DNA of 64,000 nt, from the NCBI GenBank assembly GCA_031362565.1, contig JANLSU010000058.1:69925-133924 (forward strand), written 5' to 3'. The notes below the pieces were generated by a model. The model searched no databases. It saw only the letters and a list, made by a program, of their open reading frames with translations, and was not told where the DNA came from. Position numbers and translations under genes: made by a program. Position 1 is the stretch's first letter. Each line of letters opens with the position of its first letter. Below, piece after piece: positions 1 through 13,634 of this stretch. This DNA is from a bacterium (GTDB lineage: Bacteria; Krumholzibacteriota; Krumholzibacteriia; G020349025).

Positions 1-133
1 GGGTCCGGACGCGCCACGATGGGGCGCGTTGTGCCTTGGCCCGCCTCGCCGTGGAGCGGTGCGACGCTCGCTGGCTTGCCAGACGCGCGAGACGCGGTTA
101 GCCTTGTCGCGTCCTCGAATCGGAAGGGCACTC

Positions 134-1807
134 GTGACCGTTCGGAACGTGGGCAACGCGGCGTGCGACTTCCTCGTCGTCGGGAGCGGTGTCGCCGGAT
201 TGCTGACGGCGTTGCATGCGGCACGGCATGGCAGTGTCGTTCTGGTCACCAAGCGCGCGGCCACCGATTCCAACACCAACTATGCGCAAGGCGGCATCGC
301 CTCGGTGATGAGCCCGCTCGACTCCTACGAACGCCACGTCGAAGACACTCTCGTGGCGGGCGCCGGCATTTGCCGCCGCGCCGTTGTCGAGGATGTCGTG
401 CGCCACGGCCCGGCGGTCATTCATGAACTCATGGAGTATGGGGCCCGTTTCACCGCCGGCAAAGGCGCCTTGGCTCTCGGCCGCGAGGGTGGGCACTCCT
501 CGAATCGCATCGTTCATTTTGCCGACCAGACGGGCCGCGAAATCGAGCGGGCGCTCTACGCCGCGGTCTGCGCCGAGCCGGCGATCACCGTGCGCGAGAA
601 CATCCTCGCGGTCAATTTGCTCGGCGGACGCCGGGCTGCAGACCAGCCCTTGGAAGCGAGCCGCGTCGACGGCGCGTATCTCCTCGACGAGAGTTCCGGG
701 AGAATCATGGCGCAAGCCGCGCGGGTGACCGTGCTCGCGACCGGTGGTTCGGGGAAAGCGTATCTCTACACCTCGAATCCGGACGTCGCGACCGGCGACG
801 GCATCGCCATGGCGTATCGTGCCGGCGCCCGGGTCGCCGATCTGGAGTTCGTCCAGTTCCATCCCACCTGCCTCTACAACACGAGCGGCAGCCGCTTCTT
901 GATCAGCGAAGCCGTGCGCGGCGAGGGCGCAATCTTGCGCAATGCGGCCGGCGACGAGTTCATGTCCGGCTATGACGCGCGCCGTGAACTTGCACCACGC
1001 GACGTGGTGGCGCGCGCCATCGACATGGAAATGAAACGCCGCGGCGACAAATGCGTCTTCTTGGATGTCCGCCATCTGAGCGCCGGGCACCTGCGCGAAC
1101 GCTTCCCGAACATCTATGACGCGTGCGAGCGCCAGGGCCTGCATCTGGAACGCGATTTGATTCCGGTCGTGCCGGCGGCGCACTACATGTGCGGCGGCGT
1201 GCTGGTCGACGCCGACGGCAAGACCGATTTGCCCGGCCTCTACGCTCTCGGCGAGACGAGTTGCACCGGCCTGCATGGCGCCAATCGCCTGGCGTCGAAC
1301 TCGCTTCTCGAGGCCCTCGTGTATGCGACTCGGGTCGTGAACAATGCCGTGGCGCGCGGCCTGCTGACGCGCCCCGCACCACCGGCGCCCGATTGGTCCG
1401 ATGCCGGAACCACCAGCGCCTACGACACCGTTGTTCTGGATCATGACTGGGACGCGACGCGGCGCGTCCTGTGGGACTATGTCGGCATCGTGCGGAGCGA
1501 CGAACGGCTGGAAATCGCTGCCGAGCGTCTCGCGGTTCTGCGCCGCGACATCGAGGGCTACTACTGGCGCTACCGCCTGTCGGCGGATCTGATCGAACTC
1601 CGCAACATTGCGCTCGTCGGTGACCTCATCGTGCGTTGTGCGCGCTTTCGGCGCGAGAGCCGCGGCCTGCATCACACGACCACCTGGCCGGACGAGGCGG
1701 CGGCGTTCCGCGGCGACACGGTGTTGTCGCGTTTTGTGGCGCCGTACCTGCTGCCGACCGACGTGCCGGTCGAGACCGAACCCTTTTCCGGGAGTCCGGC
1801 CGCGTGA
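134..1807 (+). CDS. nadB: L-aspartate oxidase
   Basis: GSGVAG FAD motif, YAQGGIA, EGGHS, QFHPT, LISEAVRGEG, HYMCGG, GLHGANRLASNSLLE, RESRGLH. GTG 134 follows GAAGGG. Confidence 0.93.
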   Translation: MTVRNVGNAACDFLVVGSGVAGLLTALHAARHGSVVLVTKRAATDSNTNYAQGGIASVMSPLDSYERHVEDTLVAGAGICRRAVVEDVVRHGPAVIHELMEYGARFTAGKGALALGREGGHSSNRIVHFADQTGREIERALYAAVCAEPAITVRENILAVNLLGGRRAADQPLEASRVDGAYLLDESSGRIMAQAARVTVLATGGSGKAYLYTSNPDVATGDGIAMAYRAGARVADLEFVQFHPTCLYNTSGSRFLISEAVRGEGAILRNAAGDEFMSGYDARRELAPRDVVARAIDMEMKRRGDKCVFLDVRHLSAGHLRERFPNIYDACERQGLHLERDLIPVVPAAHYMCGGVLVDADGKTDLPGLYALGETSCTGLHGANRLASNSLLEALVYATRVVNNAVARGLLTRPAPPAPDWSDAGTTSAYDTVVLDHDWDATRRVLWDYVGIVRSDERLEIAAERLAVLRRDIEGYYWRYRLSADLIELRNIALVGDLIVRCARFRRESRGLHHTTTWPDEAAAFRGDTVLSRFVAPYLLPTDVPVETEPFSGSPAA

Positions 1808-2586
1808 GCGACTCACCGTGGTACGCCGACCGGTTCGACGCCACGTACTTGGAAACGTACGCGCACCGGGACCGTGCCGAAGCCGCTCGTGCGACGCAAG
1901 GCATTCTGGTGCCGCTCGGATTGCAGGGCCGCCGCGTGCTCGATTTGTGCTGCGGGGCGGGGCGTTATCTCGAGCCCCTCGTGGCGGCCGGTGCAGAGAC
2001 GGTAGGGCTGGATTTGTCGGCGCCGCTCCTCGGTGCGGCGCGGGCGGCTCTCGGCGGCCACGCTGCGCTCGTCCGGGCCGACATGCAACGGTTGCCTTTT
2101 CGAGCCGCGTGCTTCGACCGGGTGATCAACATGTTCACGAGTTTCGGATACCTGCCAGAGCCGGACGACGACCGAGCCGTGTTGGAGGAGGTTGCCCGGG
2201 TGCTCGTACCGGACGGGGTGTTCGTGTTGGATACGTTCAACTCCGAGCTCGTGCGCGACGGTCTCGAGCCCGAAACGCACCGCACGGTCGGACGATGGGA
2301 AGTCGTCGAACGGCGCCGTTTGGACGCCGGGCGGGTCGTCAAGGAAATCGCCATGCAGTCGGGGAACGAGATTCGGCGCTATCGTGAAGACGTGCGCTTG
2401 TGGATGCCCGGCGCACTCATTGCCGCGGTGGAGGGCGCCGGGTTCGTGGTCCGATCGACGTATGGCGATTACGACGCCGGCGCCTTCGATGCGCGCTGCT
2501 CACCGCGCTTGGTGATCGCCGCGAGCCGCTCGTCCGCCCGCGGATCTGCACCATCGGAGGCTGCATGCGCGCCGTCGCGGCGTTGA
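1804..2586 (+). CDS. Class I SAM-dependent methyltransferase, probable NmbA-like bacillithiol N-methyltransferase
   Basis: VLDLCCGAGR motif I, ADMQRLPF, NMFTSFGY and N-terminal YLETYAHRD-EA. GTGA overlap with the nadB stop; 3' end overlaps bshC. Confidence 0.85.
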   Translation: MSDSPWYADRFDATYLETYAHRDRAEAARATQGILVPLGLQGRRVLDLCCGAGRYLEPLVAAGAETVGLDLSAPLLGAARAALGGHAALVRADMQRLPFRAACFDRVINMFTSFGYLPEPDDDRAVLEEVARVLVPDGVFVLDTFNSELVRDGLEPETHRTVGRWEVVERRRLDAGRVVKEIAMQSGNEIRRYREDVRLWMPGALIAAVEGAGFVVRSTYGDYDAGAFDARCSPRLVIAASRSSARGSAPSEAACAPSRR

Positions 2587-4082
2587 ATTGGGATGCTTAC
2601 GGCTGGGCGACACCGCTGGCCCGGGCGCAGGTCAAAGGGGACCTGCCGGAGGCGCTGCAGGCGCCGCGGCTGGTGGACGTTGCGCGTACCGCGAACCGCG
2701 CCGACATGCCGGCAGCGTTTCTGACCGCGTTCCTGGCGGAGCTTCCGGCCGCAGAACGGGCTCCTTGGGTGCCGCTTGGCACTCCCGGAGCGCGCGCCGT
2801 CGTTACCGGCCAGCAACCCGGGTGCGCCGGCGGCACCGCGCTCGTGTTGTACAAAGCCGCGACTGCGGTGGCCCTGGCCCAACGCCTCACGCAATCGTCC
2901 GGACGGCCCGTGGTGCCGGTGTTTTGGAATGCCACCGACGACGAAGATTTCGAAGAGATCGCGCGCGTTGGTTGGCTGGATGCAGCGTCGCGGCTGGCGT
3001 TTCTCGAACTGCCGCGCGAGGCGCGGACCGCAGCCGGTTGGGTGGGGGATCTGCCGGCGGCCGGTGACGAAGCCGCGGTGCAGGCGGCGCTCGCCACGAT
3101 CGGCAGCGAGCGTCGCGGCGATTTCACGCTGGGTCTGGCTGCCGATCACGGCGCGTGGGTCGGCGCATTTCTGCGCCACGTGTTCCCGGAACTGGCGGTC
3201 CTCGACGCCCGCAGCGTTGCATTGCGCCGGCATGCCGCGCCGCTCTTTCGGCGCTATCTCGAGGCGCGTGACGCGGTGCCGGCCGCGGTCGAAGCCCAGA
3301 TCGCCGGCGCTCAAGCGCTGGGTTTCGAGCGTACTCTGGCGGCGGCGAGCGTGCGCGCCGGGCTGTACTGGACCCCCGATCGCCGCCGGCAAAAGATCGG
3401 CGATGATTGGACACCGCTCTTGACGGCGGTCGAGCGGGCACCGGAAACCCTGTCGCCGAACGTGCTGTTACGCGCTCTGGTGCAAGACACTCTGCTGCCA
3501 ACCGTGGCGCAAGTCGTGGGTCCGGCGGAGATCGCCTATCTCGTCGAGCTGCGTCCGCTCCGGCGCCTCCTCGACGTAGCCGAACCGGCACTCGTGGCGC
3601 GCCTGACGGCGACTCTGGTGCCGGAGCCGGCTTGGGAGGCATGGCAGGGATTGGGTGAGAGCGCCGAGTCGTTGGTGCGCGGTCCGGACGCCGGTCTTGC
3701 GGCGGCGGCAAGCGAGCGCGAGCGACCAGCGCGTGAGGCCCTCGCGGCCGCCTTCGCCGCCTGGCCCGATCGTCTCGCAGCTCTCGGTGTCCCCGAGGCG
3801 CCAAGAGTTCGCGCCGCGCGCAAGATGCAGGGCGTGCAGGAAGAACTCGACCGGGCGCTGGTCGACGCGGCGCGGGCGGGCCTGCTCGCGAGCCGTCCGG
3901 CGCTCGCCGGGTTGGAAACGCGCATCCGCCCCCGCGGCCAGGCGCAGGAGCGGGTGGTCGCCGGACTGTGGTTGTGCACGACGCTTGGGCCGGCGGTGCG
4001 CACCGCCCTTTTGGAACTTGCCGGCGTGCACCTCGACGCGCTCGCCGGGGATCACGCCGCCCACTACGTGGTGGCGCACTGA
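2565..4082 (+). CDS. bshC: Bacillithiol biosynthesis cysteine-adding enzyme BshC
   Basis: VVTGQQPG, LYKA, VPVFWNATDDEDFEEI, LSPNVLLR, GPAEIAY and QER motifs. ATG 2565 follows GGAGG. Adjacent to bshB1 and bshA. Confidence 0.88.
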   Translation: MRAVAALNWDAYGWATPLARAQVKGDLPEALQAPRLVDVARTANRADMPAAFLTAFLAELPAAERAPWVPLGTPGARAVVTGQQPGCAGGTALVLYKAATAVALAQRLTQSSGRPVVPVFWNATDDEDFEEIARVGWLDAASRLAFLELPREARTAAGWVGDLPAAGDEAAVQAALATIGSERRGDFTLGLAADHGAWVGAFLRHVFPELAVLDARSVALRRHAAPLFRRYLEARDAVPAAVEAQIAGAQALGFERTLAAASVRAGLYWTPDRRRQKIGDDWTPLLTAVERAPETLSPNVLLRALVQDTLLPTVAQVVGPAEIAYLVELRPLRRLLDVAEPALVARLTATLVPEPAWEAWQGLGESAESLVRGPDAGLAAAASERERPAREALAAAFAAWPDRLAALGVPEAPRVRAARKMQGVQEELDRALVDAARAGLLASRPALAGLETRIRPRGQAQERVVAGLWLCTTLGPAVRTALLELAGVHLDALAGDHAAHYVVAH

Positions 4083-4091
4083 GGAGACTCG

Positions 4092-4829
4092 ATGACGATT
4101 TCCGCCGGATATGATGTGCTCGCCATCGGCGCGCACCCGGACGACGTGGAGGCGGCGTGCGGCGGCTGGCTGGCGCAGCTTCGGCGTGATTCCTACCGGG
4201 TAGCGATCTGCGACCTGACGCGTGGCGAACTCGGAACGAACGGTACGGTGGAGGTGCGGGCCGCGGAGGCCGCCGCCGCGGCGCGAGTTCTGGGCAGCGA
4301 AACGCGCCTGCAACTCGGCCTACCCGACGGCGCGATCGACGCACGCGACCCGGAACAACTCGTCGCCGTGGTGCGGGCGTTGCGCACCCACCGGCCGCGT
4401 CTCGTGGTCACGCCGCACGAACAAAGCCGGCATCCCGACCATTCGGAAGCTGCCGCCCTAGTGCGCAAAGCGGTTTTTTTCACTGCCGTGCCACGTTTTG
4501 CGCCCGACATTCCGGCGGCGCCGCGGCCGGTGCGGATCCGAGCGACCGACTATTGGCCGGTGGTGCCGTCCTTCGTCGTCGACGTGAGTGCGACGCTCGA
4601 TCTCAAACTGCAAGCGCTGCGGTGCTATCGTTCACAGTTCGAGCTCGACGCCGCGAGTCAGCCGACGCACTTGAACGACGCTGCCTATTTACAGCGCATC
4701 GAAACCGACGCGCGGCACTACGGCCGGCTCATCGGCGCCGCGGCGGGCGAGGGGTTTGTCATCGATGGCGCCGTGCCGCTCGCCGACCCGGTGCGGGCTC
4801 TGGCGCCTCGGGCGGAGGTACGGGCGTGA
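4092..4829 (+). CDS. bshB1: Bacillithiol biosynthesis deacetylase BshB1
   Basis: GAHPDDVE, DLTRGELGTNG, RHPDH and CYRSQF motifs; GAGGAG SD. Confidence 0.92.
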   Translation: MTISAGYDVLAIGAHPDDVEAACGGWLAQLRRDSYRVAICDLTRGELGTNGTVEVRAAEAAAAARVLGSETRLQLGLPDGAIDARDPEQLVAVVRALRTHRPRLVVTPHEQSRHPDHSEAAALVRKAVFFTAVPRFAPDIPAAPRPVRIRATDYWPVVPSFVVDVSATLDLKLQALRCYRSQFELDAASQPTHLNDAAYLQRIETDARHYGRLIGAAAGEGFVIDGAVPLADPVRALAPRAEVRA

Positions 4830-5959
4830 AGATCGGCATTACGTGCCATACCGGTTCCGGCGGCAGTGGGATCCTAGCCACCGAACTGGGACTGCGCATG
4901 GCGGCACGCGGCCACGAGGTGCATTTCATCGCCCGCGAATCGCCGTTTCGCCTCCCGGGCTACGTCGACAACGTCTTCATGCACGCCGTGGAGACAGTGT
5001 ACTACCCGTTGTTCCAGGAACCGCCGCATTCCCTGTCCTTGGCTTCGAAGATGGCCGAGGTGGCGGTTTCCTACGATCTCGACGTGCTGCACGTGCACTA
5101 TGCGATCCCGCACACGGTCAGCGCCTATTTGGCGAAACAAATGCTGGCGCCGCGGCCGCTCGGGGTGGTCACGACCCTGCACGGCACCGACATCACGCTC
5201 GTCGGCAATCAGCCGATTTTCCAGCGCATCACCCGCTTCTGCATCGAGAAGAGCGATCGCGTCACGGCCGTGTCGGAGTTCTTGCGCCAGCAAACCCTGC
5301 GTACCTTCGACGTCAGCCGCGAGGTGCGCGTCATCCACAACTTCATCGACCTGGAACGCTTCGTCGAGCGTGACAATGCAGCCTTGAGGGGGCGTTTCGC
5401 GGCCCCCGAGGAATTCATCGTCATGCATGCTTCGAACTTCCGGCCGGTCAAGAATATCGGCTTCTTGATCGATGTGTTCGATGGCATCCAGCGGGTGCTG
5501 CCGGCGCGGCTGGTCCTGGTGGGGGAGGGGCCGGAGATCACGCTCGCCGAGCGCCGGGTGGACGAGCTCGGCCTTCAGGCCAGGGTCCGGTTCTTGGGCA
5601 ATCAAGAAGGCATCGAACAACTCTTGCCGCTGGCGGATCTCTTTCTGCTGCCGAGTCATCACGAGAGTTTCGGGCTCGCGGCACTCGAAGCGATGGCGTG
5701 CGGTGCGTTGGTGATCGCGACCTCCTCCGGCGGCACGCGTGAAGTCATCGATGACGGTGTCACCGGTTTTCTGCACCCGCCGACCGATGTCGCGAGCTGG
5801 ACGCGTACCGCGGTCGAAGTCTTGCGCGATCCGGCGCTTCGGGCCCGCATTCGCAGTGCGGCGCGGCACGCTGCGGTGACGCGCTTTGGCGGCGAAACGG
5901 CATGTGCAGCCTACGAAGACGAGTATCGCCTCGCCCGCGAACAAGCGCACGCTCGTTGA
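4826..5959 (+). CDS. bshA: N-acetyl-alpha-D-glucosaminyl L-malate synthase BshA
   Basis: GGSGILATELG, HVHYAIPH, TTLHGTDITLVG, HASNFRPVKN and ESFGLAALEAMACG motifs; GTGA overlap. Confidence 0.93.
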   Translation: MKIGITCHTGSGGSGILATELGLRMAARGHEVHFIARESPFRLPGYVDNVFMHAVETVYYPLFQEPPHSLSLASKMAEVAVSYDLDVLHVHYAIPHTVSAYLAKQMLAPRPLGVVTTLHGTDITLVGNQPIFQRITRFCIEKSDRVTAVSEFLRQQTLRTFDVSREVRVIHNFIDLERFVERDNAALRGRFAAPEEFIVMHASNFRPVKNIGFLIDVFDGIQRVLPARLVLVGEGPEITLAERRVDELGLQARVRFLGNQEGIEQLLPLADLFLLPSHHESFGLAALEAMACGALVIATSSGGTREVIDDGVTGFLHPPTDVASWTRTAVEVLRDPALRARIRSAARHAAVTRFGGETACAAYEDEYRLAREQAHAR

Positions 5960-5984
5960 CAGGCGGCCAGGGCCTTCCTACGAT
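5956..5984 (+). promoter_or_regulatory. Sigma70-type promoter for the selenoprotein gene
   Basis: TTGACA (5956-5961), 17 nt spacer, TACGAT (5979-5984); overlaps the bshA stop codon. Confidence 0.7.
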
Positions 5985-6031
5985 CTCGACAGCGATGCGA
6001 CGCCCCGTGCAGCGGGGGAGGAGGCGAACGA

Positions 6032-7027
6032 ATGAGTGGCGGGTTGCGGCGGTGGTTGTGGCGGGCGGCCGCGTTAGGGGCTTTGCTCGGCGCCGGATGT
6101 AGTGGCCGGTCGGACGATTTCTTGGTGGCCTATTCCGGCGATTGCCAGGGGTATAGCGAGCCCTGCGGATGAACTGCCGCCCGCCTCGGCGGACTCGCCC
6201 GGCGGGCGAGCGTTCTCAAACCACTCTTGAATCGGTACCCGGCGCATCTCGTCCTGGATGCGGGCGGCTGGGCCGAGCGCACCAACCCGGATCGCGCCGA
6301 TTTGCGCTCGCGGTTCGTGTTGCAGGGACTTCACCAGCTCGGGCTCGAGATCGCCAATCTATCGGCGCGTGAGCTCAAGCTCGGTCCGGCGGTGTTGCGC
6401 GCGTTAGCGGATTCGTCGCGCGTCCAGTTCGTGTCGGCGAATATCGAAATTCCCGGCGCCCGCACCTGGCTCAAGCCGTACATTATTTTGAATCGCAGCA
6501 TCGGCGGCCGCGCGGTGCGCATTGGCATCGCCGGTGTGTCGCTTTCCGTCCCGGACGTCGGCAGCCTGTGGCCCGACTCGTTGGCGCCCAAGATCACCGA
6601 TCCGATTGCCGCCGCCGAACAAGTATTCGAGACTCTCAAACCACAGACCGACATGCAGATTCTGCTCGCCTACGTGCCGACCGCCGAACTCGATCGGGAT
6701 TCGACCGAATTAGAGGGCTATGACTTGGTCGTCGCGGGCGCCGGGGACCTGCGTGAATCCCCGCCCGTGGGCAAACTTCCGGTCGTGCTGGCGCCGGGGA
6801 CGCGGTGCAAATTCGCCGGCTGGATCGCGCTGCGGCCCACCGAGGGCACGAGCTACGCGGTGGCCGACGGCGGCGTCGTGCAACTGGACACCAAGGTGCC
6901 CGATGACCCGGCAATGGCCAAGCTGGTACAGCAGTTCAAGGACCGTCTGGGGCCACCAGCCGCCGCCCCTTCGACCCGCCAAACGGTCCCCCCGGGCGAG
7001 GCGCTTTCCCGCCATCCGCTGCCTTGA
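6032..7027 (+). CDS. UshA/5'-nucleotidase-like selenoprotein lipoprotein, 331 aa, Sec at codon 47 (TGA 6170-6172)
   Basis: SD GGAGGAGG at 6017-6024 and ATG 6032. Reads MSGGLRRWLWRAAALGALLGAGC (lipobox)...YSGDCQGYSEPCG-TGA-TAARLGGLARRA...LVLDAGG...FVSAN, in frame with ORF 6227..7027. A SECIS-like hairpin follows the TGA. Confidence 0.85.
6178..6208 (+). promoter_or_regulatory. Putative bacterial SECIS element
   Basis: CGCCCGCC/GGCGGGCG lower stem, small internal loop, GGCG/CGCC upper stem. The GACU apical loop begins 20 nt after the in-frame UGA. Confidence 0.7.
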
Positions 7028-7137: not shown

Positions 7138-7899
7138 ATGAAGCGCAGCCTCGCGCTCGCGATTCTGGCCGTGGTTTTCACGCTCCAGCCGGCCGCTGCG
7201 TCCGAGTGGCTCGGAATGGATGGCGGCTACCTTCGGGCAGCGGGCCGCAGCAACGATTTTGCCCACGACGGCAGCCAAATCGAACTGTACTGGCAGCACT
7301 TCAATAAAGGCCGGTCCGGGCTGCAATTCGGGGCCGGTTATCTGGAATTGGGTCTCGAGGGCGCGGTGCAGAACCAGGTCGCCGAGTTCGCCACCCTGGT
7401 GCGCGAAAAGAATCGCGCCGCACAGTTTCAGGGCGGTCCCGGCGACGGTTGGCTGAGCGCCGAGTGGGGCGTGTTCAAGGCGTCGTATTTGACCACCAAC
7501 CTGATTGTCCGTCCGTGGGCGACGGGCCACGTCGCGCCATTCTTTACGGCCGGTGTGGGCGCCTACAAGTGGCGCTTGCCGTTTCGCGTCAAATTCTATG
7601 ACACGCCGTTCTTCGGCGAGCAGCACGCCTATGACGAGCCCGGCGCCGGAACTCTGTACACCGGAATCATCCGCAAGGATCAGGTGGACTTCACCAAGGA
7701 CGGCGTCACCGGCGGTGTGAACGGCGGCGTTGGGGTCGCGGTTCGCGTCGTCTCGAACCTCCAGGCGACCGCCCAGGTACGCGCCCATCTCCTGTTCACA
7801 TCGGGGCGCGGCAACCGCGAAGAAGGCATCGACGATCAGGACTATCTGAATACCGTGACGTTTTTTCTCGTGCGTGGTGGATTGAGCTACCGGTTCTGA
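7138..7899 (+). CDS. Outer-membrane beta-barrel protein (OMP_b-brl-like)
   Basis: GGAGG SD, signal peptide ending AAA, amphipathic strands (PFFTAGVGAY, GVNGGVGV), C-terminal GLSYRF beta-signal. Confidence 0.8.
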   Translation: MKRSLALAILAVVFTLQPAAASEWLGMDGGYLRAAGRSNDFAHDGSQIELYWQHFNKGRSGLQFGAGYLELGLEGAVQNQVAEFATLVREKNRAAQFQGGPGDGWLSAEWGVFKASYLTTNLIVRPWATGHVAPFFTAGVGAYKWRLPFRVKFYDTPFFGEQHAYDEPGAGTLYTGIIRKDQVDFTKDGVTGGVNGGVGVAVRVVSNLQATAQVRAHLLFTSGRGNREEGIDDQDYLNTVTFFLVRGGLSYRF

Positions 7900-7909
7900 C
7901 TTCCGTGCC

Positions 7910-8782
7910 TCACCGTTGCCGCCGCAAGAGGTCGACTTCCCGCCGGAGGGCGTCGAGTTCGCGATGCATCTGTTGCAGCTCGCGGCGTAGTCCGTCGACA
8001 TCGTCGCTCGGCCGTGGCGTCGCACGGCCGCTCGGCCGAAACAGCGAACCGCGCGATTCAACCTCGAGGCGCAGCGACGTACGCCGTTCGTGGCGCCAGA
8101 CAACGACGTCCACCAAGCCGGAATCCGCCGCGGCGCGATTGGCGAGTTGTTGCCGCAACTCGCCCGTACTGTGGACATCACGGCCGTCGACGCCGAGCAC
8201 CAAGTCACCCGCCTCGAGCCCGCCGCGGTCGCCGGCGCCACCCGGAAGGACCCGGGTGACGAGCGCGCAATCCGGCCGTGGGGCGTGAAAATAGGCCGCG
8301 AGGTCCGCATCGAGGTCGACGAGATCGGCGCCGAACTCGGGCCGGACCTGAAACCAGTCGTTCGGCGACCACGATCCCTGCAGGCGATCCACCAGCGCGT
8401 CCGGATCGAATCCGTCACGGCGTGCCGCGAGCGCGATGTCGACCGTCTGATTCGCGGCTCCCGCCCGCCTGAGCGTCAAGCGCAGGCGCTCACCCGGATG
8501 ACGGTCCTGAACCCGGGACACGAAGGCGGCGCGATCCGCGACCGGCGCGCCATCCACGGCCACGATGACATCGCCGGCACGAATGCCGGCACCGGCGGCC
8601 GGACCTTGCGGCTCGACAACCGTGACTTCGACGCCCGTCTCGTTGGCAGAGGCCTCGCGGACTGAAATCCCCAGCCACGCGCGCCGGGCCCGGTCGAGAT
8701 TCGAGTCTTGCGCCGATGCGGCGGACACCAACAGCAGCATCGCAAGTCCAGCAAGACCGCCGCCGCTCAACCTGATTCGCAT
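7910..8782 (-). CDS. Secreted protein with two PDZ domains and a C-terminal coiled coil
   Basis: Signal peptide (…ASA-QD), AWLGISV…GPAAGAGIRAGDVI and a second GLEAGDLVL PDZ repeat; no protease domain. Confidence 0.82.
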   Translation of the reverse strand: MRIRLSGGGLAGLAMLLLVSAASAQDSNLDRARRAWLGISVREASANETGVEVTVVEPQGPAAGAGIRAGDVIVAVDGAPVADRAAFVSRVQDRHPGERLRLTLRRAGAANQTVDIALAARRDGFDPDALVDRLQGSWSPNDWFQVRPEFGADLVDLDADLAAYFHAPRPDCALVTRVLPGGAGDRGGLEAGDLVLGVDGRDVHSTGELRQQLANRAAADSGLVDVVVWRHERRTSLRLEVESRGSLFRPSGRATPRPSDDVDGLRRELQQMHRELDALRREVDLLRRQR

Positions 8783-8872
8783 GTCGTGGCGCCTTTCCGG
8801 CGATCCGCGCCGCTGAGTTTGCAGCACGATTGGGTGGGCTTGGCCGCAGCGCTCCGGAAGCGGCATCCTCGG

Positions 8873-8901
8873 TTGACCGCCTCCTGGACCCAGGCTATCC
8901 T
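8873..8901 (+). promoter_or_regulatory. Possible sigma70 promoter
   Basis: TTGACC, 17 nt spacer, TATCCT, upstream of the HNH gene. Confidence 0.5.
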
Positions 8902-8947
8902 GACGGCGGCGTGACGCGCGGTGCGCGCGCCGTCCGAGGCCGGGACC

Positions 8948-9532
8948 ATGTTGAATCAAAGTGTCCTCGTCCTCAACCGCAGCTGGCTAGCTGTGCACGT
9001 TTGCGACGTTCGCCGTGCGCTTGCGCTGCTCGTGCTAGGCCTCGCGCGGGTCGTGACCGACGAGTTCGAGACCCATGACTTCGATTCGTGGGCCGAGCTT
9101 TCGCGCGGCGCCAAGGGCGAGTCACTGCGAACCCCGCGCTTCAAGCTGCTGGTCCCCGAGGTCATCGTCCTCACGCATTACAACGCCATCCCGCCGCGTC
9201 GTGTCAAGTTTTCGCGCCGCAACATTTTCGAGCGCGACCGCTACACCTGTCAGTACTGCGGCCGCACCCCGCAGCGCGCCGAGTTGTCGATCGATCACGT
9301 CGTGCCGCGCAGCCGCGGCGGGCAGACGACGTGGAGCAACGTCATTCTGGCGTGCACCGCGTGCAACGCCAGAAAACGCGACCGCCTGCCGTCCGAGGCC
9401 GGCATGTGGCCGCAGAGAACCCCGTCCGAACCGCCCTGGCGCCCCGGGGCCGGATTTCGCTTGGGAAATCATCGGCGCAGTTGGTTGCGGTTCGTCGAGG
9501 GACCGAGCCCGCGTTGGAGTGAAGCCTCTTGA
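8948..9532 (+). CDS. HNH endonuclease (McrA/HNH_5-like)
   Basis: VLVLN, FSRRNIFERDRYTCQYCG, IDHVVPRSRGG, ACTACNARK. Confidence 0.9.
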   Translation: MLNQSVLVLNRSWLAVHVCDVRRALALLVLGLARVVTDEFETHDFDSWAELSRGAKGESLRTPRFKLLVPEVIVLTHYNAIPPRRVKFSRRNIFERDRYTCQYCGRTPQRAELSIDHVVPRSRGGQTTWSNVILACTACNARKRDRLPSEAGMWPQRTPSEPPWRPGAGFRLGNHRRSWLRFVEGPSPRWSEAS

Positions 9533-10434
9533 CCGCCCCAGCCCCGGTTGTCGTCGTCGGCGGCGGCGCGCTCGGTTGCCTCCTTGCCGCCATCCTGTCG
9601 CGCGCGACTGCCACGACACTCGTCACCCGCGGCCGGACCGCTGAGGTGCTCCGGGACCGTGGTGCGGTCGAGTTGCAGGGGCTGCTCTCGGGCCGCTATC
9701 CGGTGCTGGCGAAGGCGGCGTTCGATCCGCCCCCAGGGGCCTGCATCGTGGTCGCCGTCAAGGCGTACGACCTCGATTTGACGCTCGCACTGCTGGCGCC
9801 GCAGCTCGACCCGACGCACGAAGTGGTGCTCTTGCAGAACGGCCTGGGGATCGGTGCGTTCGCGATGCAGATCCTCGGCCGGCCGGTGACGCGCGGCATC
9901 ACCTTCATCGCCGCCGAACGCTTGCAACCGGGCGTGGTGCGGTTCAATGCGGCGGGGAAGACCTATTTCCCAGCCGCGTCGGCGATCACGGGACTCTGGC
10001 ATCGCGCCGGCCTGCCGGCGGAACCGGTCCATAATGTCGACGTCTACGAATGGCGCAAACTGGCGATCAATGCCGTGATCAATCCGCTTTCGGCACTGCT
10101 CGGAGTCGAGAACGGGGCGCTCGCAGGCCTCGTCGACACGGCGCGCGGGCTCGTCGAAGAACTGGTCAGCGTGGCGCGTTCCGATGGCGTCGAGCTCGAT
10201 GCCGACGAGACGCTCGAAAAGGTCCTCGCCAGCATCCATCAGACCGGGCGCAATCATTCCTCGATGTTGCAGGATGTGCGGGCCGGACGGCGCACCGAGA
10301 TCGATTGGATCAACGGTGCCATCGTGGCGCGCGGCATGGCGCACGGTGTGGCGACGCCGCGGCATCGTTTGCTCGCCGACTTGGTGCGCTTCGTGGCCCG
10401 TGATCCGCGTCCCGCAGTACAGGAGGCGCGGTGA
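9529..10434 (+). CDS. panE: Ketopantoate reductase
   Basis: GGGALG, VKAY, LQNG, WRKLAINAVINPL, SSMLQD, TEIDWING. Confidence 0.88.
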   Translation: MTAPAPVVVVGGGALGCLLAAILSRATATTLVTRGRTAEVLRDRGAVELQGLLSGRYPVLAKAAFDPPPGACIVVAVKAYDLDLTLALLAPQLDPTHEVVLLQNGLGIGAFAMQILGRPVTRGITFIAAERLQPGVVRFNAAGKTYFPAASAITGLWHRAGLPAEPVHNVDVYEWRKLAINAVINPLSALLGVENGALAGLVDTARGLVEELVSVARSDGVELDADETLEKVLASIHQTGRNHSSMLQDVRAGRRTEIDWINGAIVARGMAHGVATPRHRLLADLVRFVARDPRPAVQEAR

Positions 10435-13400
10435 AACGCGCCGCGGCACTGCCGGCCTTTGGCGTTCTCCTGGCGCCGGCGCTCGTAACGGCCTTTGTGG
10501 CGCGCGCGCCGGCGATCGACGCACGGCCGTGGCCGGCGCCGCCGGCCGAGATCGCCGCGCCCGCGGCGCTGGCGGCGGAATTCGAGCTGGCGCTGCCCGG
10601 CCGTTGGGAGTTGCGGCTCTGCTCCGCCACCGGAAGCCTGGCAGCCGGGGTACGCGGCGTCGCGGCCGCCGGTCCGCCTGTGACTCGCGACGCGGTGATC
10701 GCTGCCGCCGACGGCTTCCGCAACTCGATGGCCCCCAGTCTTGGAGCGGCGGGCGCCGAATGCGCCCGGCAACGGGTTGAATTCATCGGTGGTGCCTGGC
10801 ACGTCACCTGGCAGCAACGGTCGGGACTGCGGCCTGTGCTTGGGGCGTGGCTCGATGTCGTTGTCCGGCAAGATGGTGCGGTGGTTGCCTTCACGTCGAG
10901 CCTGAGGCCCGGCGTGCGGGTCGATGCAGGCCTCCAGACGGTCGATGCGGCATGCGCCGCGGTCGCGGCCTGGATGGGCCACCGGCTGCGTTGCGTCGCG
11001 AGTCAGGCGGTCGTGTGGCCGGGTGAAAACGCCGGCCTGGCGCGCGCCGCATGGCGGCTCGAGTTGATGGGCGCGCCGGACGAGCGCTGGCGAGCCGTCG
11101 TCGATGCCGCGAACGGTAACGTCCTGGCCTGTGAGACGGGGGTTCGGACCGCAGTCGCCGGGGTGTGCAGCGCCGACATCGCGCCGTTCTATGCGCAGGA
11201 CACGCCGGTCGAGCGCCCGCTGCCATGGCTGCGGGTTCATCTCGCCGATGACACGGCAACGCGCTCGGTGTGGTGCGATGCGGCAGGTGCGTTCCGGTTC
11301 GACCTCACGCCCGTCGCCGGCAGTGTTGTGCACGCCGGGCTGGAGAGTCCGTATTTGCGGGTCGGCAATGCGGCCGATGCGCCGCTCTGTGCCGCCACCA
11401 CCCCGGCGGCAGCGCTGGTGAACTTGCATTTTGGTGCGGCATCGGGCCGGCTCGATGAGCGGACGATCTATGTGCACGCGCACCGAATTCACGACTACGC
11501 GCGCGACCGTTTCGATTTTCGTGGTCTCGATGCACCGATGCCGGCGGTGGCCGGCGAGCCCGGGCTTGCGAACGCTTTTTGGGATGGAGAGGGAATTCAC
11601 TTCGGCGACGGTGGCGGGAGCTTCTACAACCTCGGTTTGTTTGCCGATGTGATCTATCACGAGTATACGCACGGCATCACCGACGTCATGTACCGGCCGT
11701 TCGGCGGGCTCGACGGCAGCCAAGGCGGTGCCATCCACGAAGGCTTGTCGGATTACTTCGCCTGTACGTTGACCGACGAACCCCTGGTGGGTGAAAACCT
11801 TTTCCGGAATGCGCCGGGCTCGGTGCTACGCAATCTCGACAACGCCTTGGTGTGGCCGGCCGATGCACGCGGCGAAGTGCATGCGGATGGCGAGATCTTC
11901 GCCGGGGCGCTCTGGAATTTGCGCCAGAGCGTCGGCAACGCGGTCAGTGATCCGCTCGTGCACTTCGCGCGAACTTTTGGGCCGCGCACGTTCGACGCCT
12001 ACGCCAACGCGGTGTTGCTCGAGGACGACCTCCTGTTCGGCGATGGGCAAGCGGGCAACGGCTCACCGCACCGCAGCGCGATCCTGGCGGCATTCGCCCG
12101 CCATGGTATCGGACCCGGAACGAGCGCGGCGCGCCAACTCGTGCACGCGCCGCTGCCGGACACCGAGGCGATCGGCGCCGGGCGCATCGTACGGGCGGGA
12201 TTCGAAGGGCATCTGTCGTCGCTCGCCGATTCACTGGTGCTCGCGTACTCGACGGGCGGCGCCTACACGTTCACCGGCATGCGCCACGAACCCGACGGCG
12301 ATTTCAGCGGCGAAATCCCGGGCCCCGTCCTCGCGGCCGGCACCACCGTCCGGTATTACGTGCGGACGACGCCGCGCCGTGGCACTCCGGCGGCGACACT
12401 GCCGCCCGGGGCGCCGAGTTCGACCTACAGTTTCCACGTTGGCGTCGATGTCACGCCGCCGTCCATCGTGTCCGACACGGCGGCCGAGTTGCCCGTCTTC
12501 GCTTGGCCGGCGACGTTGCAGGCGCGCATTCGCGACAACCTTGGCATTGCATCCGCCTACGTCGAGGTTTGGCAGGACGGCGTTGCCAGTGCGATGCTCG
12601 GCATGGTGCGGGACCGGGTCGATCCCGAACGTTTCACGACCCAATTCTCCAACACCGGCACCGTCGGGGCGCGGATTCGCTATCGAATCGTCGCGACCGA
12701 CGCGGCACATGCCGCCAATACTGCCTGTGCACCGGCGTGTGATTCGACTTTCGAAACCGTGCTCGTGGCGCGCTGGCAAGAGCGATTCGAAACCAGCGAC
12801 GGCGGCTTCGAGCATGCGAGTGTACGGCCGGGATATGCCGACGCCTGGCGCCGGTCGACGGATGCGCCGGCCACGAGCGTTGCCTGGCACTGTGGCGGGC
12901 CGGCGGCGGAATATGCCCCGGGCCTGGCCGCAGGTCTCGTGACCCCGGATGCCAGCCTGGGTACGGGTGCCGTGGCCCGCGTGCGCTCATGGATCGACGC
13001 GGAACCCAATGGTGCGCATGAGGCATTCGACGGCGCGGTCGTGGAGATTGAAATCGATGCCGACGCCGTGTGGCGGCCGCTGACGCCGATCGGCGGCTAT
13101 TCGCACATCATGGCGGCAACCGGCGGCACCAACGTGCTCGAGCCGGGCCGGCCATGTCTCGGCGGCCGGGAGCGCGTGTGGCGCGACCTCGAATTCGATC
13201 TCGGTGCGTGGGCCGGGCACCGCGTGCGTCTGCGGTTCTTGTTCGCCAGTGATGGGACGGCATCGCCGTTCGGTTATCGCGGCTGGGTCCTGGACGACTT
13301 CGACCTCGATCCCGGCAGCGTCGATCCCACCGATGTGCCCGACGCCGCCCCTGCCGCACGCCTGCTCGCCGGCGCGCCACGGCCCTGTCCGGCGCGCGGC

Positions 13401-13634
13401 CGGGTCGAATTCCAACTGGCCGCCGGGCCCCAGGAACCACTGCGGATCGCGGTCTATGACGCACGCGGCCGCCGGGTCCGGACGCTCTGGGACGGGCCGA
13501 CGTTGCAGGCGTTGCAAGTCGTTGCATGGGAGGGAAACGACGCGGGCGGCCTGGCGCTCCCCGCGGGCGTCTATTACTATCGCCTCGACTCGCGCCGGGG
13601 CCGCGAGCACGGCCGCATCGTGCTCGTGCGTTGA
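10431..13634 (+). CDS. Secreted zinc metallopeptidase (M4/M36 type) with propeptide and C-terminal FlgD-Ig/T9SS-like domain
   Basis: NAFWDG, HEYTH, HEGLSDYF, GEVHADG; PepSY-like VDAANG; C-terminal VYDARGRRVRTL…GVYYYRL…IVLVR. Confidence 0.85.
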   Translation: MKRAAALPAFGVLLAPALVTAFVARAPAIDARPWPAPPAEIAAPAALAAEFELALPGRWELRLCSATGSLAAGVRGVAAAGPPVTRDAVIAAADGFRNSMAPSLGAAGAECARQRVEFIGGAWHVTWQQRSGLRPVLGAWLDVVVRQDGAVVAFTSSLRPGVRVDAGLQTVDAACAAVAAWMGHRLRCVASQAVVWPGENAGLARAAWRLELMGAPDERWRAVVDAANGNVLACETGVRTAVAGVCSADIAPFYAQDTPVERPLPWLRVHLADDTATRSVWCDAAGAFRFDLTPVAGSVVHAGLESPYLRVGNAADAPLCAATTPAAALVNLHFGAASGRLDERTIYVHAHRIHDYARDRFDFRGLDAPMPAVAGEPGLANAFWDGEGIHFGDGGGSFYNLGLFADVIYHEYTHGITDVMYRPFGGLDGSQGGAIHEGLSDYFACTLTDEPLVGENLFRNAPGSVLRNLDNALVWPADARGEVHADGEIFAGALWNLRQSVGNAVSDPLVHFARTFGPRTFDAYANAVLLEDDLLFGDGQAGNGSPHRSAILAAFARHGIGPGTSAARQLVHAPLPDTEAIGAGRIVRAGFEGHLSSLADSLVLAYSTGGAYTFTGMRHEPDGDFSGEIPGPVLAAGTTVRYYVRTTPRRGTPAATLPPGAPSSTYSFHVGVDVTPPSIVSDTAAELPVFAWPATLQARIRDNLGIASAYVEVWQDGVASAMLGMVRDRVDPERFTTQFSNTGTVGARIRYRIVATDAAHAANTACAPACDSTFETVLVARWQERFETSDGGFEHASVRPGYADAWRRSTDAPATSVAWHCGGPAAEYAPGLAAGLVTPDASLGTGAVARVRSWIDAEPNGAHEAFDGAVVEIEIDADAVWRPLTPIGGYSHIMAATGGTNVLEPGRPCLGGRERVWRDLEFDLGAWAGHRVRLRFLFASDGTASPFGYRGWVLDDFDLDPGSVDPTDVPDAAPAARLLAGAPRPCPARGRVEFQLAAGPQEPLRIAVYDARGRRVRTLWDGPTLQALQVVAWEGNDAGGLALPAGVYYYRLDSRRGREHGRIVLVR

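Follow-up and report, generated by a model that had tools for sequence, protein, structure and literature searches.

An in-frame TGA downstream of bshA in a Krumholzibacteriota genome probably encodes selenocysteine in a heme-less, UshA-like predicted lipoprotein

An interrupted gene downstream of bshA

The gene described here lies downstream of bshA in a 64,000-nucleotide stretch of DNA (positions 69,925 to 133,924 of contig JANLSU010000058.1, assembly GCA_031362565.1) from a bacterium of the lineage Krumholzibacteriota; we call this whole stretch the window, and use its positions throughout. Sequence comparison makes it very probable that this is a real gene for a selenocysteine (Sec)-containing, putative exported lipoprotein, which standard gene calling cuts short at an internal TGA. 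From ATG 6032, the frame contains a single internal TGA (6170-6172) and is then open as far as TGA 7025-7027, which gives a product of 331 amino acids. The encoded order, in one frame throughout, is MSGGLRRWLWRAAALGALLGAGC..., ...VAYSGDCQGYSEPCG, the internal TGA, and TAARLGGLARRA.... An earlier note on this DNA had placed the start, the single TGA, the continuation in the same frame and the length of the product exactly so, and the promoter-like sequence, ribosome-binding site and lipoprotein signal that it described also lie where it had put them (Table 1).

The promoter-like TTGACA-17-TACGAT sequence agrees with the consensus at 10 of 12 positions, and is the sole match within the 2.3 kb between 5700 and 8000, where shuffled sequences average 0.2 matches. 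The predicted leader terminates in ...LLGAG-C, and a Cys is found at the equivalent place in orthologues and in metagenome relatives. A twin-arginine reading of this leader (RRWLW) was dropped because the RR pair is missing from several relatives.

Open reading frame (ORF) calling with translation table 11 splits the gene in two, 6032-6172 (46 amino acids) and a downstream ORF of 266 amino acids. The note had also predicted this truncation, and protein databases do store exactly the 266-residue form. Eleven further relatives are present in the protein database, of which two are full-length Cys forms. The six Sec-type relatives inspected all begin 3' of the Sec column, that is, they are stored as truncated ORFs, and three others are 255, 255 and 261 amino acids long, with coverage of 70-79%.

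Table 1. Features of the locus, its neighbours, and the Sec machinery of the same genome (window positions, unless a contig is named)
Feature	Position	Strand	Remarks
Full selenoprotein gene	6032..7027	+	331 codons including Sec47, then stop TGA 7025-7027
Truncated ORF of standard gene calling	6227..7027	+	TTG start, 266 aa; identical to database entry P0002
Sigma-70-like promoter match TTGACA-17-TACGAT	5956..5984	+	Overlaps bshA TGA stop; consensus match only
Shine-Dalgarno-like GGAGGAGG	6017..6024	+	7 nt upstream of ATG 6032; from sequence
Predicted signal peptide with lipobox	6032..6100	+	Cys23 (TGT 6098-6100) is the predicted lipidated first mature residue
Cys45-Gly46-Sec47 (TGC GGA TGA)	6164..6172	+	TGA 6170-6172 read as Sec (predicted)
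Family-conserved SECIS-like hairpin	6193..6211	+	7-8 bp stem, 6193-6200/6204-6211; apical loop GGC 6201-6203
Longer hairpin of the earlier note	6176..6211	+	Minimum-free-energy fold of the 66 nt after the TGA; apical loop GACU 6192-6195; excludes conserved helix
FAD-binding protein	29-1807		Upstream
SAM methyltransferase	1636-2586		Upstream
bshC	2400-4082	+	PF10079 BshC, 145.7 bits
bshB1	4092-4829	+	TIGR04001, 230.9 bits (cut-off 182.5)
bshA	about 4823-5959	+	TIGR03999, 486.8 bits (cut-off 273.7); TGA stop 5957-5959
253-aa secreted protein ending ...YRF	7138-7899	+	Predicted small outer-membrane beta-barrel
Two-PDZ secreted protein	7910-8959	-	
HNH-domain protein	8921-9532		203 aa
PanE-like reductase	9529-10434		
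1067-aa ORF	10431-13634		Thermolysin-like M4 peptidase domain, FlgD-Ig and MAM-like domains
tRNA-Sec	Contig C62		78.8 bits; ARAGORN anticodon tca
SelB			350.4 bits
SelA			501.4 bits
SelD	G000:C6:945-1859 (L018)		Window's contig; 383.6 bits; one in-frame TGA

Conservation of the in-frame TGA and of the Sec machinery

Genomes of the same class were searched in six frames, reading through stops, and the 31 loci returned, the window's own included, were aligned. A member of the UshA-like family was detected in every genome of the class (61/61, E 0.001 or better), and most matches contain exactly one TGA. At the column of the window's TGA, to which the earlier note had pointed as the place where Sec or Cys should be sought, 24 of the 31 rows have TGA and seven have Cys (L030, L032, L037, L041, L042, L046 and L048). 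The flanks of the column are conserved as well, following the pattern x-P/S/A-C/A/S-G-[U/C]-5 residues-GG(L/V)(A/G)RRA.

The same column was examined in closer and in more scattered relatives. All four orthologues from other genera of this bacterial family (45-47% identity) carry TGA there. A metagenome scan provided 14 more loci, 13 of which span the column, with TGA in 13/13; in this set L054 and L055 duplicate each other and L059 duplicates L021, another of our loci. Two full-length Cys forms, P0008 (316 amino acids) and P0011 (318 amino acids), belong to the same clade of short proteins as the window's protein (the short clade, below), and contain both a lipobox and ...PCGC...GGLARRA. A search of the genome contigs with P0008 gave one distant match (L050, 34%), which was not used further. 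The segment 5' of the TGA, with its predicted signal peptide and lipobox Cys, is conserved in every homologue that spans it, whereas the earlier note had regarded homologues lacking this segment as a reason to doubt the prediction. Taken as the classical Sec/Cys signature, these patterns strongly support the predicted decoding of TGA 6170-6172 as Sec.

Decoding of this kind calls for Sec machinery, which the note had suggested looking for, and the window's own genome, which is 100% complete in 133 contigs, has tRNA-Sec, SelA, SelB and SelD, all above curated cut-offs (Table 1). The selD gene holds one in-frame TGA, so SelD is itself probably a selenoprotein in this organism. A second, putative tRNA-Sec (G000:C70:109509-109606, L002) matches the model with 52.6 bits, above the cut-off.

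A SECIS-like hairpin conserved among Sec genes

Downstream of the TGA, Sec genes of the family share a hairpin that resembles a selenocysteine insertion sequence (SECIS) and is encoded by the Leu-Ala-Arg-Arg-Ala codons of the GGLARRA motif. Its stem begins 20 nucleotides past the UGA and its GGC loop lies 28 nucleotides past it, a distance that we take to be acceptable for a SECIS element. We examined the structure in a gap-free alignment of 66 nucleotides around the TGA from the 24 Sec genes. RNAalifold, run independently, predicts one helix (columns 29-34 with 38-43) that matches the conserved hairpin. With eight pairs, the hairpin is paired in 92.7% of alignment cells (178/192), compared with 36-55% for slid controls, and 25 cells are altered on both sides; none of 500 shuffles matches the observed pairing or covariation. 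The pairs that vary fall at synonymous sites: the third positions of the Leu codon and of the second Ala codon pair with each other, and in two Sec genes GCU/CGA stand in place of GCC/CGG. Although the encoded amino acids do not differ in the seven Cys genes, just 30 of the 56 cells of these genes are paired (54%, versus 178/192 in Sec genes), and they use CGC/CGT Arg codons within GGLARRA. In 16 distinct genes of the short clade, columns 28-43 are invariant, synonymous sites included, among proteins that are 39-62% identical to the window's.

The earlier note had proposed a different, longer hairpin as the SECIS element. A GC-rich hairpin does dominate the 66 nucleotides after the TGA as their minimum-free-energy fold (-33.3 kcal/mol, z -3.98, none of 200 shuffles as good), and to this extent the note was right. 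The longer hairpin is not conserved in the family, however: across the 24 Sec genes, 56.3% of its cells are paired, and although this rises to 75.3% in the short clade, it does so without covariation (118 of 500 shuffles are as high). Since the shorter helix is conserved with covariation and the longer one is not, we assign the SECIS core to 6193-6211. A scan of 5900-6400 against Rfam (E 1 or better) matched no corresponding family, and produced one chance match to a miRNA model on the opposite strand.

A short, heme-less branch of UshA-like selenoproteins

UshA-like selenoproteins have been in print since 2008, so the kind is already known, and the present gene is a new, divergent member. The GOS study of that year lists "COG0737, UshA-like", with a CxU motif, as a selenoprotein family, for which it counts 76 Sec sequences in 20 samples and 92 Cys homologues (PMC2398784). 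Two reviews (PMC9312934, PMC13188914) list the families NF041198 (CxU) and NF049981 (CxxU). The passages of these three papers that deal with UshA-like selenoproteins list the family and do not mention a function. Literature on UshA or UshA-like selenoproteins, and on selenoproteins together with bacillithiol, in the portions covered, yielded no account of a function, of a CxU branch without heme or of a link to bsh genes.

The window's protein contains PCGU followed by GGLARRA, the motif that the earlier note had taken as the mark of UshA-like proteins, which fits the name of the NCBIfam model NF041198, UshA_like_PCGU. The family label suggested by the note is therefore upheld by the motif and is not matched by the scores, as the protein reaches 98.3 bits with NF041198 (cut-off 275), covering profile positions 19-262 of 519, and 33.7 bits with NF049981 (UshA_like_Sel_2; cut-off 140), where the weak match spans positions 1-89 of the profile. 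Being below both cut-offs, it falls outside the regular membership of the two curated models. The four orthologues are likewise under the NF041198 cut-off, at 99-129 bits. Neither the read-through protein nor the Cys form P0008 matched a family in Pfam.

In the class, canonical relatives reach 210-299 bits with NF041198, extend for about 390-417 residues beyond the Sec or Cys, and carry four CxxCH motifs with matches to cytochrome c-554-type domains. By comparison, Sec is followed by 283-286 residues in the window's protein and its orthologues, which contain no CxxCH. A canonical paralogue is present in the same genome (L020, G000:C22:2352-3233); its gene contains a single in-frame TGA, its C-terminal domain has four CxxCH motifs, and it scores 261 bits against the cut-off of 275 when its N-terminally trimmed translation is used. 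Like NF041198 members, the window's protein has a predicted signal peptide, the ...PCGU.....GGLARRA sequence with Sec at the same column, the same SECIS-like hairpin in the GGLARRA codons, and the same N-terminal fold. It differs from them in lacking the C-terminal tetraheme (4 x CxxCH) domain, so that the second half of the profile is unmatched, in having lost the His residues of canonical members (LLSH, GH), and in its position on a long, separate branch (1.48). With NF049981, the second UshA-like family, it shares a short, heme-less architecture and a Sec near the N-terminus, but the motif of that family is CxxU according to the passage in PMC13188914, versus CxU here.

These relationships were examined in a tree of the shared domain (37 rows, rooted at the midpoint only, with L024 excluded as too short). 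The short clade (15 rows) has 100/100 support, its stem measures 1.48, and the Cys forms P0008 and P0011 are nested inside it. Closest to it are canonical copies from its own bacterial family (89/92, not starred). Another set of short proteins, all with Cys (L030, L041 and L048), is nested among canonical genes of another family (97/94). Because the short sets occupy two separate places on the tree, the heme domain was probably lost at least twice. In the order that contains the window, five of seven genomes, counting the window's own, have the short form; no copy was detected in the other two, which are 64% and 86% complete.

Predicted fold and possible function

An AlphaFold2 model built from 38 sequences (pLDDT 90.0, pTM 0.86) suggests that the window's protein has the fold of the N-terminal domain of 5'-nucleotidases. 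The top Foldseek matches of the model are to this domain in CD73 and bacterial 5'-nucleotidases (E 1e-19, TMq 0.64-0.70; CD73/5'-nucleotidase 0.68), and a profile search of PDB sequences also retrieves 5'-nucleotidases (E 8.6e-40). The protein ends about where the N-domain ends in the solved enzymes (chain residue about 313 of 520-550), and the C-terminal substrate-binding domain is absent. Thus, although it resembles Escherichia coli UshA, human CD73 and the Thermus 5'-nucleotidase in the N-domain fold and in the GG(L/V)ARR start of a helix, it differs from them in having no C-terminal nucleotide-binding domain, in containing Sec, and in its active-site residues.

To compare these residues, motifs were mapped through the family and PDB alignments, using what we take to be the metal ligands and catalytic His of 5'-nucleotidases (DxH, GD, GNH, H and GH motifs). 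One of the seven positions is kept, as D37, whereas Q39, G79, A112, R113, Y214 and A237 replace the His, Asp, Asn, His, His and His of the enzymes. The replaced positions vary within the short clade; at position 214, for example, Y, H, A and F all occur. In canonical, heme-bearing relatives, four of the seven residues are retained. Vertebrate ecto- and venom 5'-nucleotidases contain a loop with two Cys, "SGkC..c.YGGVARR", the first of which aligns with the Sec column, and the occurrence of GGVARR in these enzymes implies that GG(L/V)ARR is an ancestral feature of the superfamily rather than a hallmark of selenoproteins.

From these observations we infer that the protein provides an envelope Cys-Gly-Sec redox centre and is not a phosphoesterase. 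In the mechanism we propose, SelB and tRNA-Sec would decode UGA 6170-6172 as Sec in a 331-residue lipoprotein precursor, directed by the hairpin at 6193-6211, with its apical GGC, that is built of the GGLARRA codons. The mature protein would consist of one domain, folded like the N-terminal metallophosphatase domain of 5'-nucleotidases such as UshA and CD73, and would be a heme-less paralogue of the canonical UshA-like/tetraheme-cytochrome selenoprotein (NF041198). Its Cys45-Gly-Sec47 triad, predicted to sit in the loop that joins strand 1 to helix 1, may cycle via a selenenylsulfide and serve as an extracytoplasmic redox centre. The whole would be a lipid-anchored envelope protein on a scaffold that presumably no longer binds two metals and does not act as a phosphoesterase.

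The alternative that fares best accepts the Sec and supposes that the protein is still a metal-dependent phosphoesterase, either a UshA-like nucleotidase or a SoxB-like hydrolase, in which Sec is a metal ligand. The fold is that of 5'-nucleotidases, the Sec loop comes after the first metal-binding motif, and the orthologues (30-31 bits) and canonical relatives (up to 96 bits) weakly match the model for SoxB (TIGR04486), a protein of the same superfamily. All of these scores are far under the cut-off of 550, however, and the window's protein itself has no SoxB match at E 1 or better. Since, in addition, six of the seven ligand or catalytic positions have been replaced and vary within the clade, and the domain that binds substrate in 5'-nucleotidases is gone, we consider a retained phosphoesterase activity improbable.

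Alternative readings of the TGA

Other explanations concern the TGA itself. If it were a true stop, the upstream part would encode a leader peptide of 46 residues or be a decayed 5' end, and the 266-residue gene that starts at TTG 6227 would be separate from it. This is how table-11 calling and the public databases have it, but every homologue that covers the 46 codons before the TGA conserves them as protein, in frame, and the Cys forms read straight through. Moreover, the 266-residue ORF would have neither a signal peptide nor the fold's first strand, and the TGA is followed by a hairpin that is specific to the genes bearing it. A true stop is accordingly very hard to sustain.

It is more doubtful still that the TGA is recoded as something other than Sec, through a general reassignment to sense or through near-cognate read-through. 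TGA terminates both bshA (5957-5959) and the selenoprotein gene (7025-7027), and as a working stop of these two genes it excludes general reassignment. The complete Sec machinery, and the fact that Cys is the sole alternative to TGA at the column, also oppose this explanation. A sequencing or assembly error in place of TGC or TGT is scarcely credible, because, although the genome is a metagenome-type assembly, TGA recurs at the same column in the genomes of the four orthologues and in 13 metagenome loci that belong to other records, and contigs assembled independently from the probable source run contain 5956-7027 with 0 differences at depth 11.7. That assembly shows neither of the Cys codons that, by the earlier note, would have counted against its reading if present in the reads, and is weak support since it comes from the same sample. 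The TGA is covered by the probable source run only; two other runs reach 6269-6555 (both) and 6993-7027 (one).

Several points weigh against the interpretation of the gene as one for a redox-active selenoprotein. The case for selenium in the protein comes from comparing sequences, and the sequencing runs listed include no RNA run that might show expression of the gene. The near-invariance of the hairpin within the short clade means that its covariation support comes from the wider family, and the longer hairpin could possibly be an alternative conformer in that clade. The suggested redox role draws on the C-x-U motif and on the loss of the presumed metal ligands.

Genomic surroundings

The short selenoprotein gene occupies a conserved position. 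Directly upstream, bshA is found in all four genome orthologues and in 9/9 metagenome loci with enough DNA, with four metagenome loci too short for the upstream neighbour to be judged. Directly downstream, the gene for the predicted beta-barrel is found in all the loci that can be tested (three of three in genomes, 12 of 12 in metagenomes). On two long contigs, the conserved order also takes in the methyltransferase, bshC, HNH and PanE genes. As it reaches beyond the bsh genes, this order may reflect collinearity within one lineage, not functional coupling.

The barrel protein, which is conserved among the relatives, matched no family in Pfam or NCBIfam. Its structural model is a small beta-barrel (pLDDT 81.9) that is closest to OmpA/OmpW-type proteins (E 2e-10). 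An inserted long helix at residues 76-97 is a further feature of this model.

The SAM methyltransferase gene directly precedes bshC-bshB1-bshA, which places the whole bacillithiol pathway in one cluster. Organisms that produce N-methyl-bacillithiol use such a methyltransferase. The methyltransferase-bshC-bshB1-bshA order also occurs on the metagenome contigs of L054 and L059.

The bacillithiol set (methyltransferase, bshC, bshB1 and bshA) is directly upstream of the selenoprotein gene in every relative that can be tested. The short Sec lipoprotein and the adjacent outer-membrane barrel might conceivably form an envelope redox module tied to bacillithiol or N-methyl-bacillithiol, an idea that we regard as speculative and unlikely. 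If true, it would mean that a bacillithiol-linked, extracytoplasmic selenoenzyme has been built on a dead phosphoesterase scaffold.

Two other neighbours resemble known families in part. The HNH protein, a conserved neighbour on L021, L022, L054 and L059, reaches 54.5 bits with the HNH part of IscB/Cas9d models, below the cut-off of 175. In the two-PDZ protein, the PDZ part gives a weak match to NF041199, the Trx7/PDZ (seleno)protein model (53.9 bits versus a cut-off of 300), and no Trx part was seen.

Implications

What is new here is the short, cytochrome-less branch, which is missed by both curated models and differs from them in architecture. The gene is a worked example of a selenoprotein overlooked by gene callers and by curated family models alike, and a model built from the short clade would correct these annotations. 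Cys genes encode GGLARRA with codons that break the hairpin, which offers a simple diagnostic, at the nucleotide level, for distinguishing Sec from Cys members. The overall value of the finding is modest, and lies in correcting annotations, in this nucleotide-level SECIS diagnostic, and in leaving fewer hypotheses on function: loss of the tetraheme domain, probably on at least two occasions, and the shedding of phosphoesterase residues narrow what the family may be doing.

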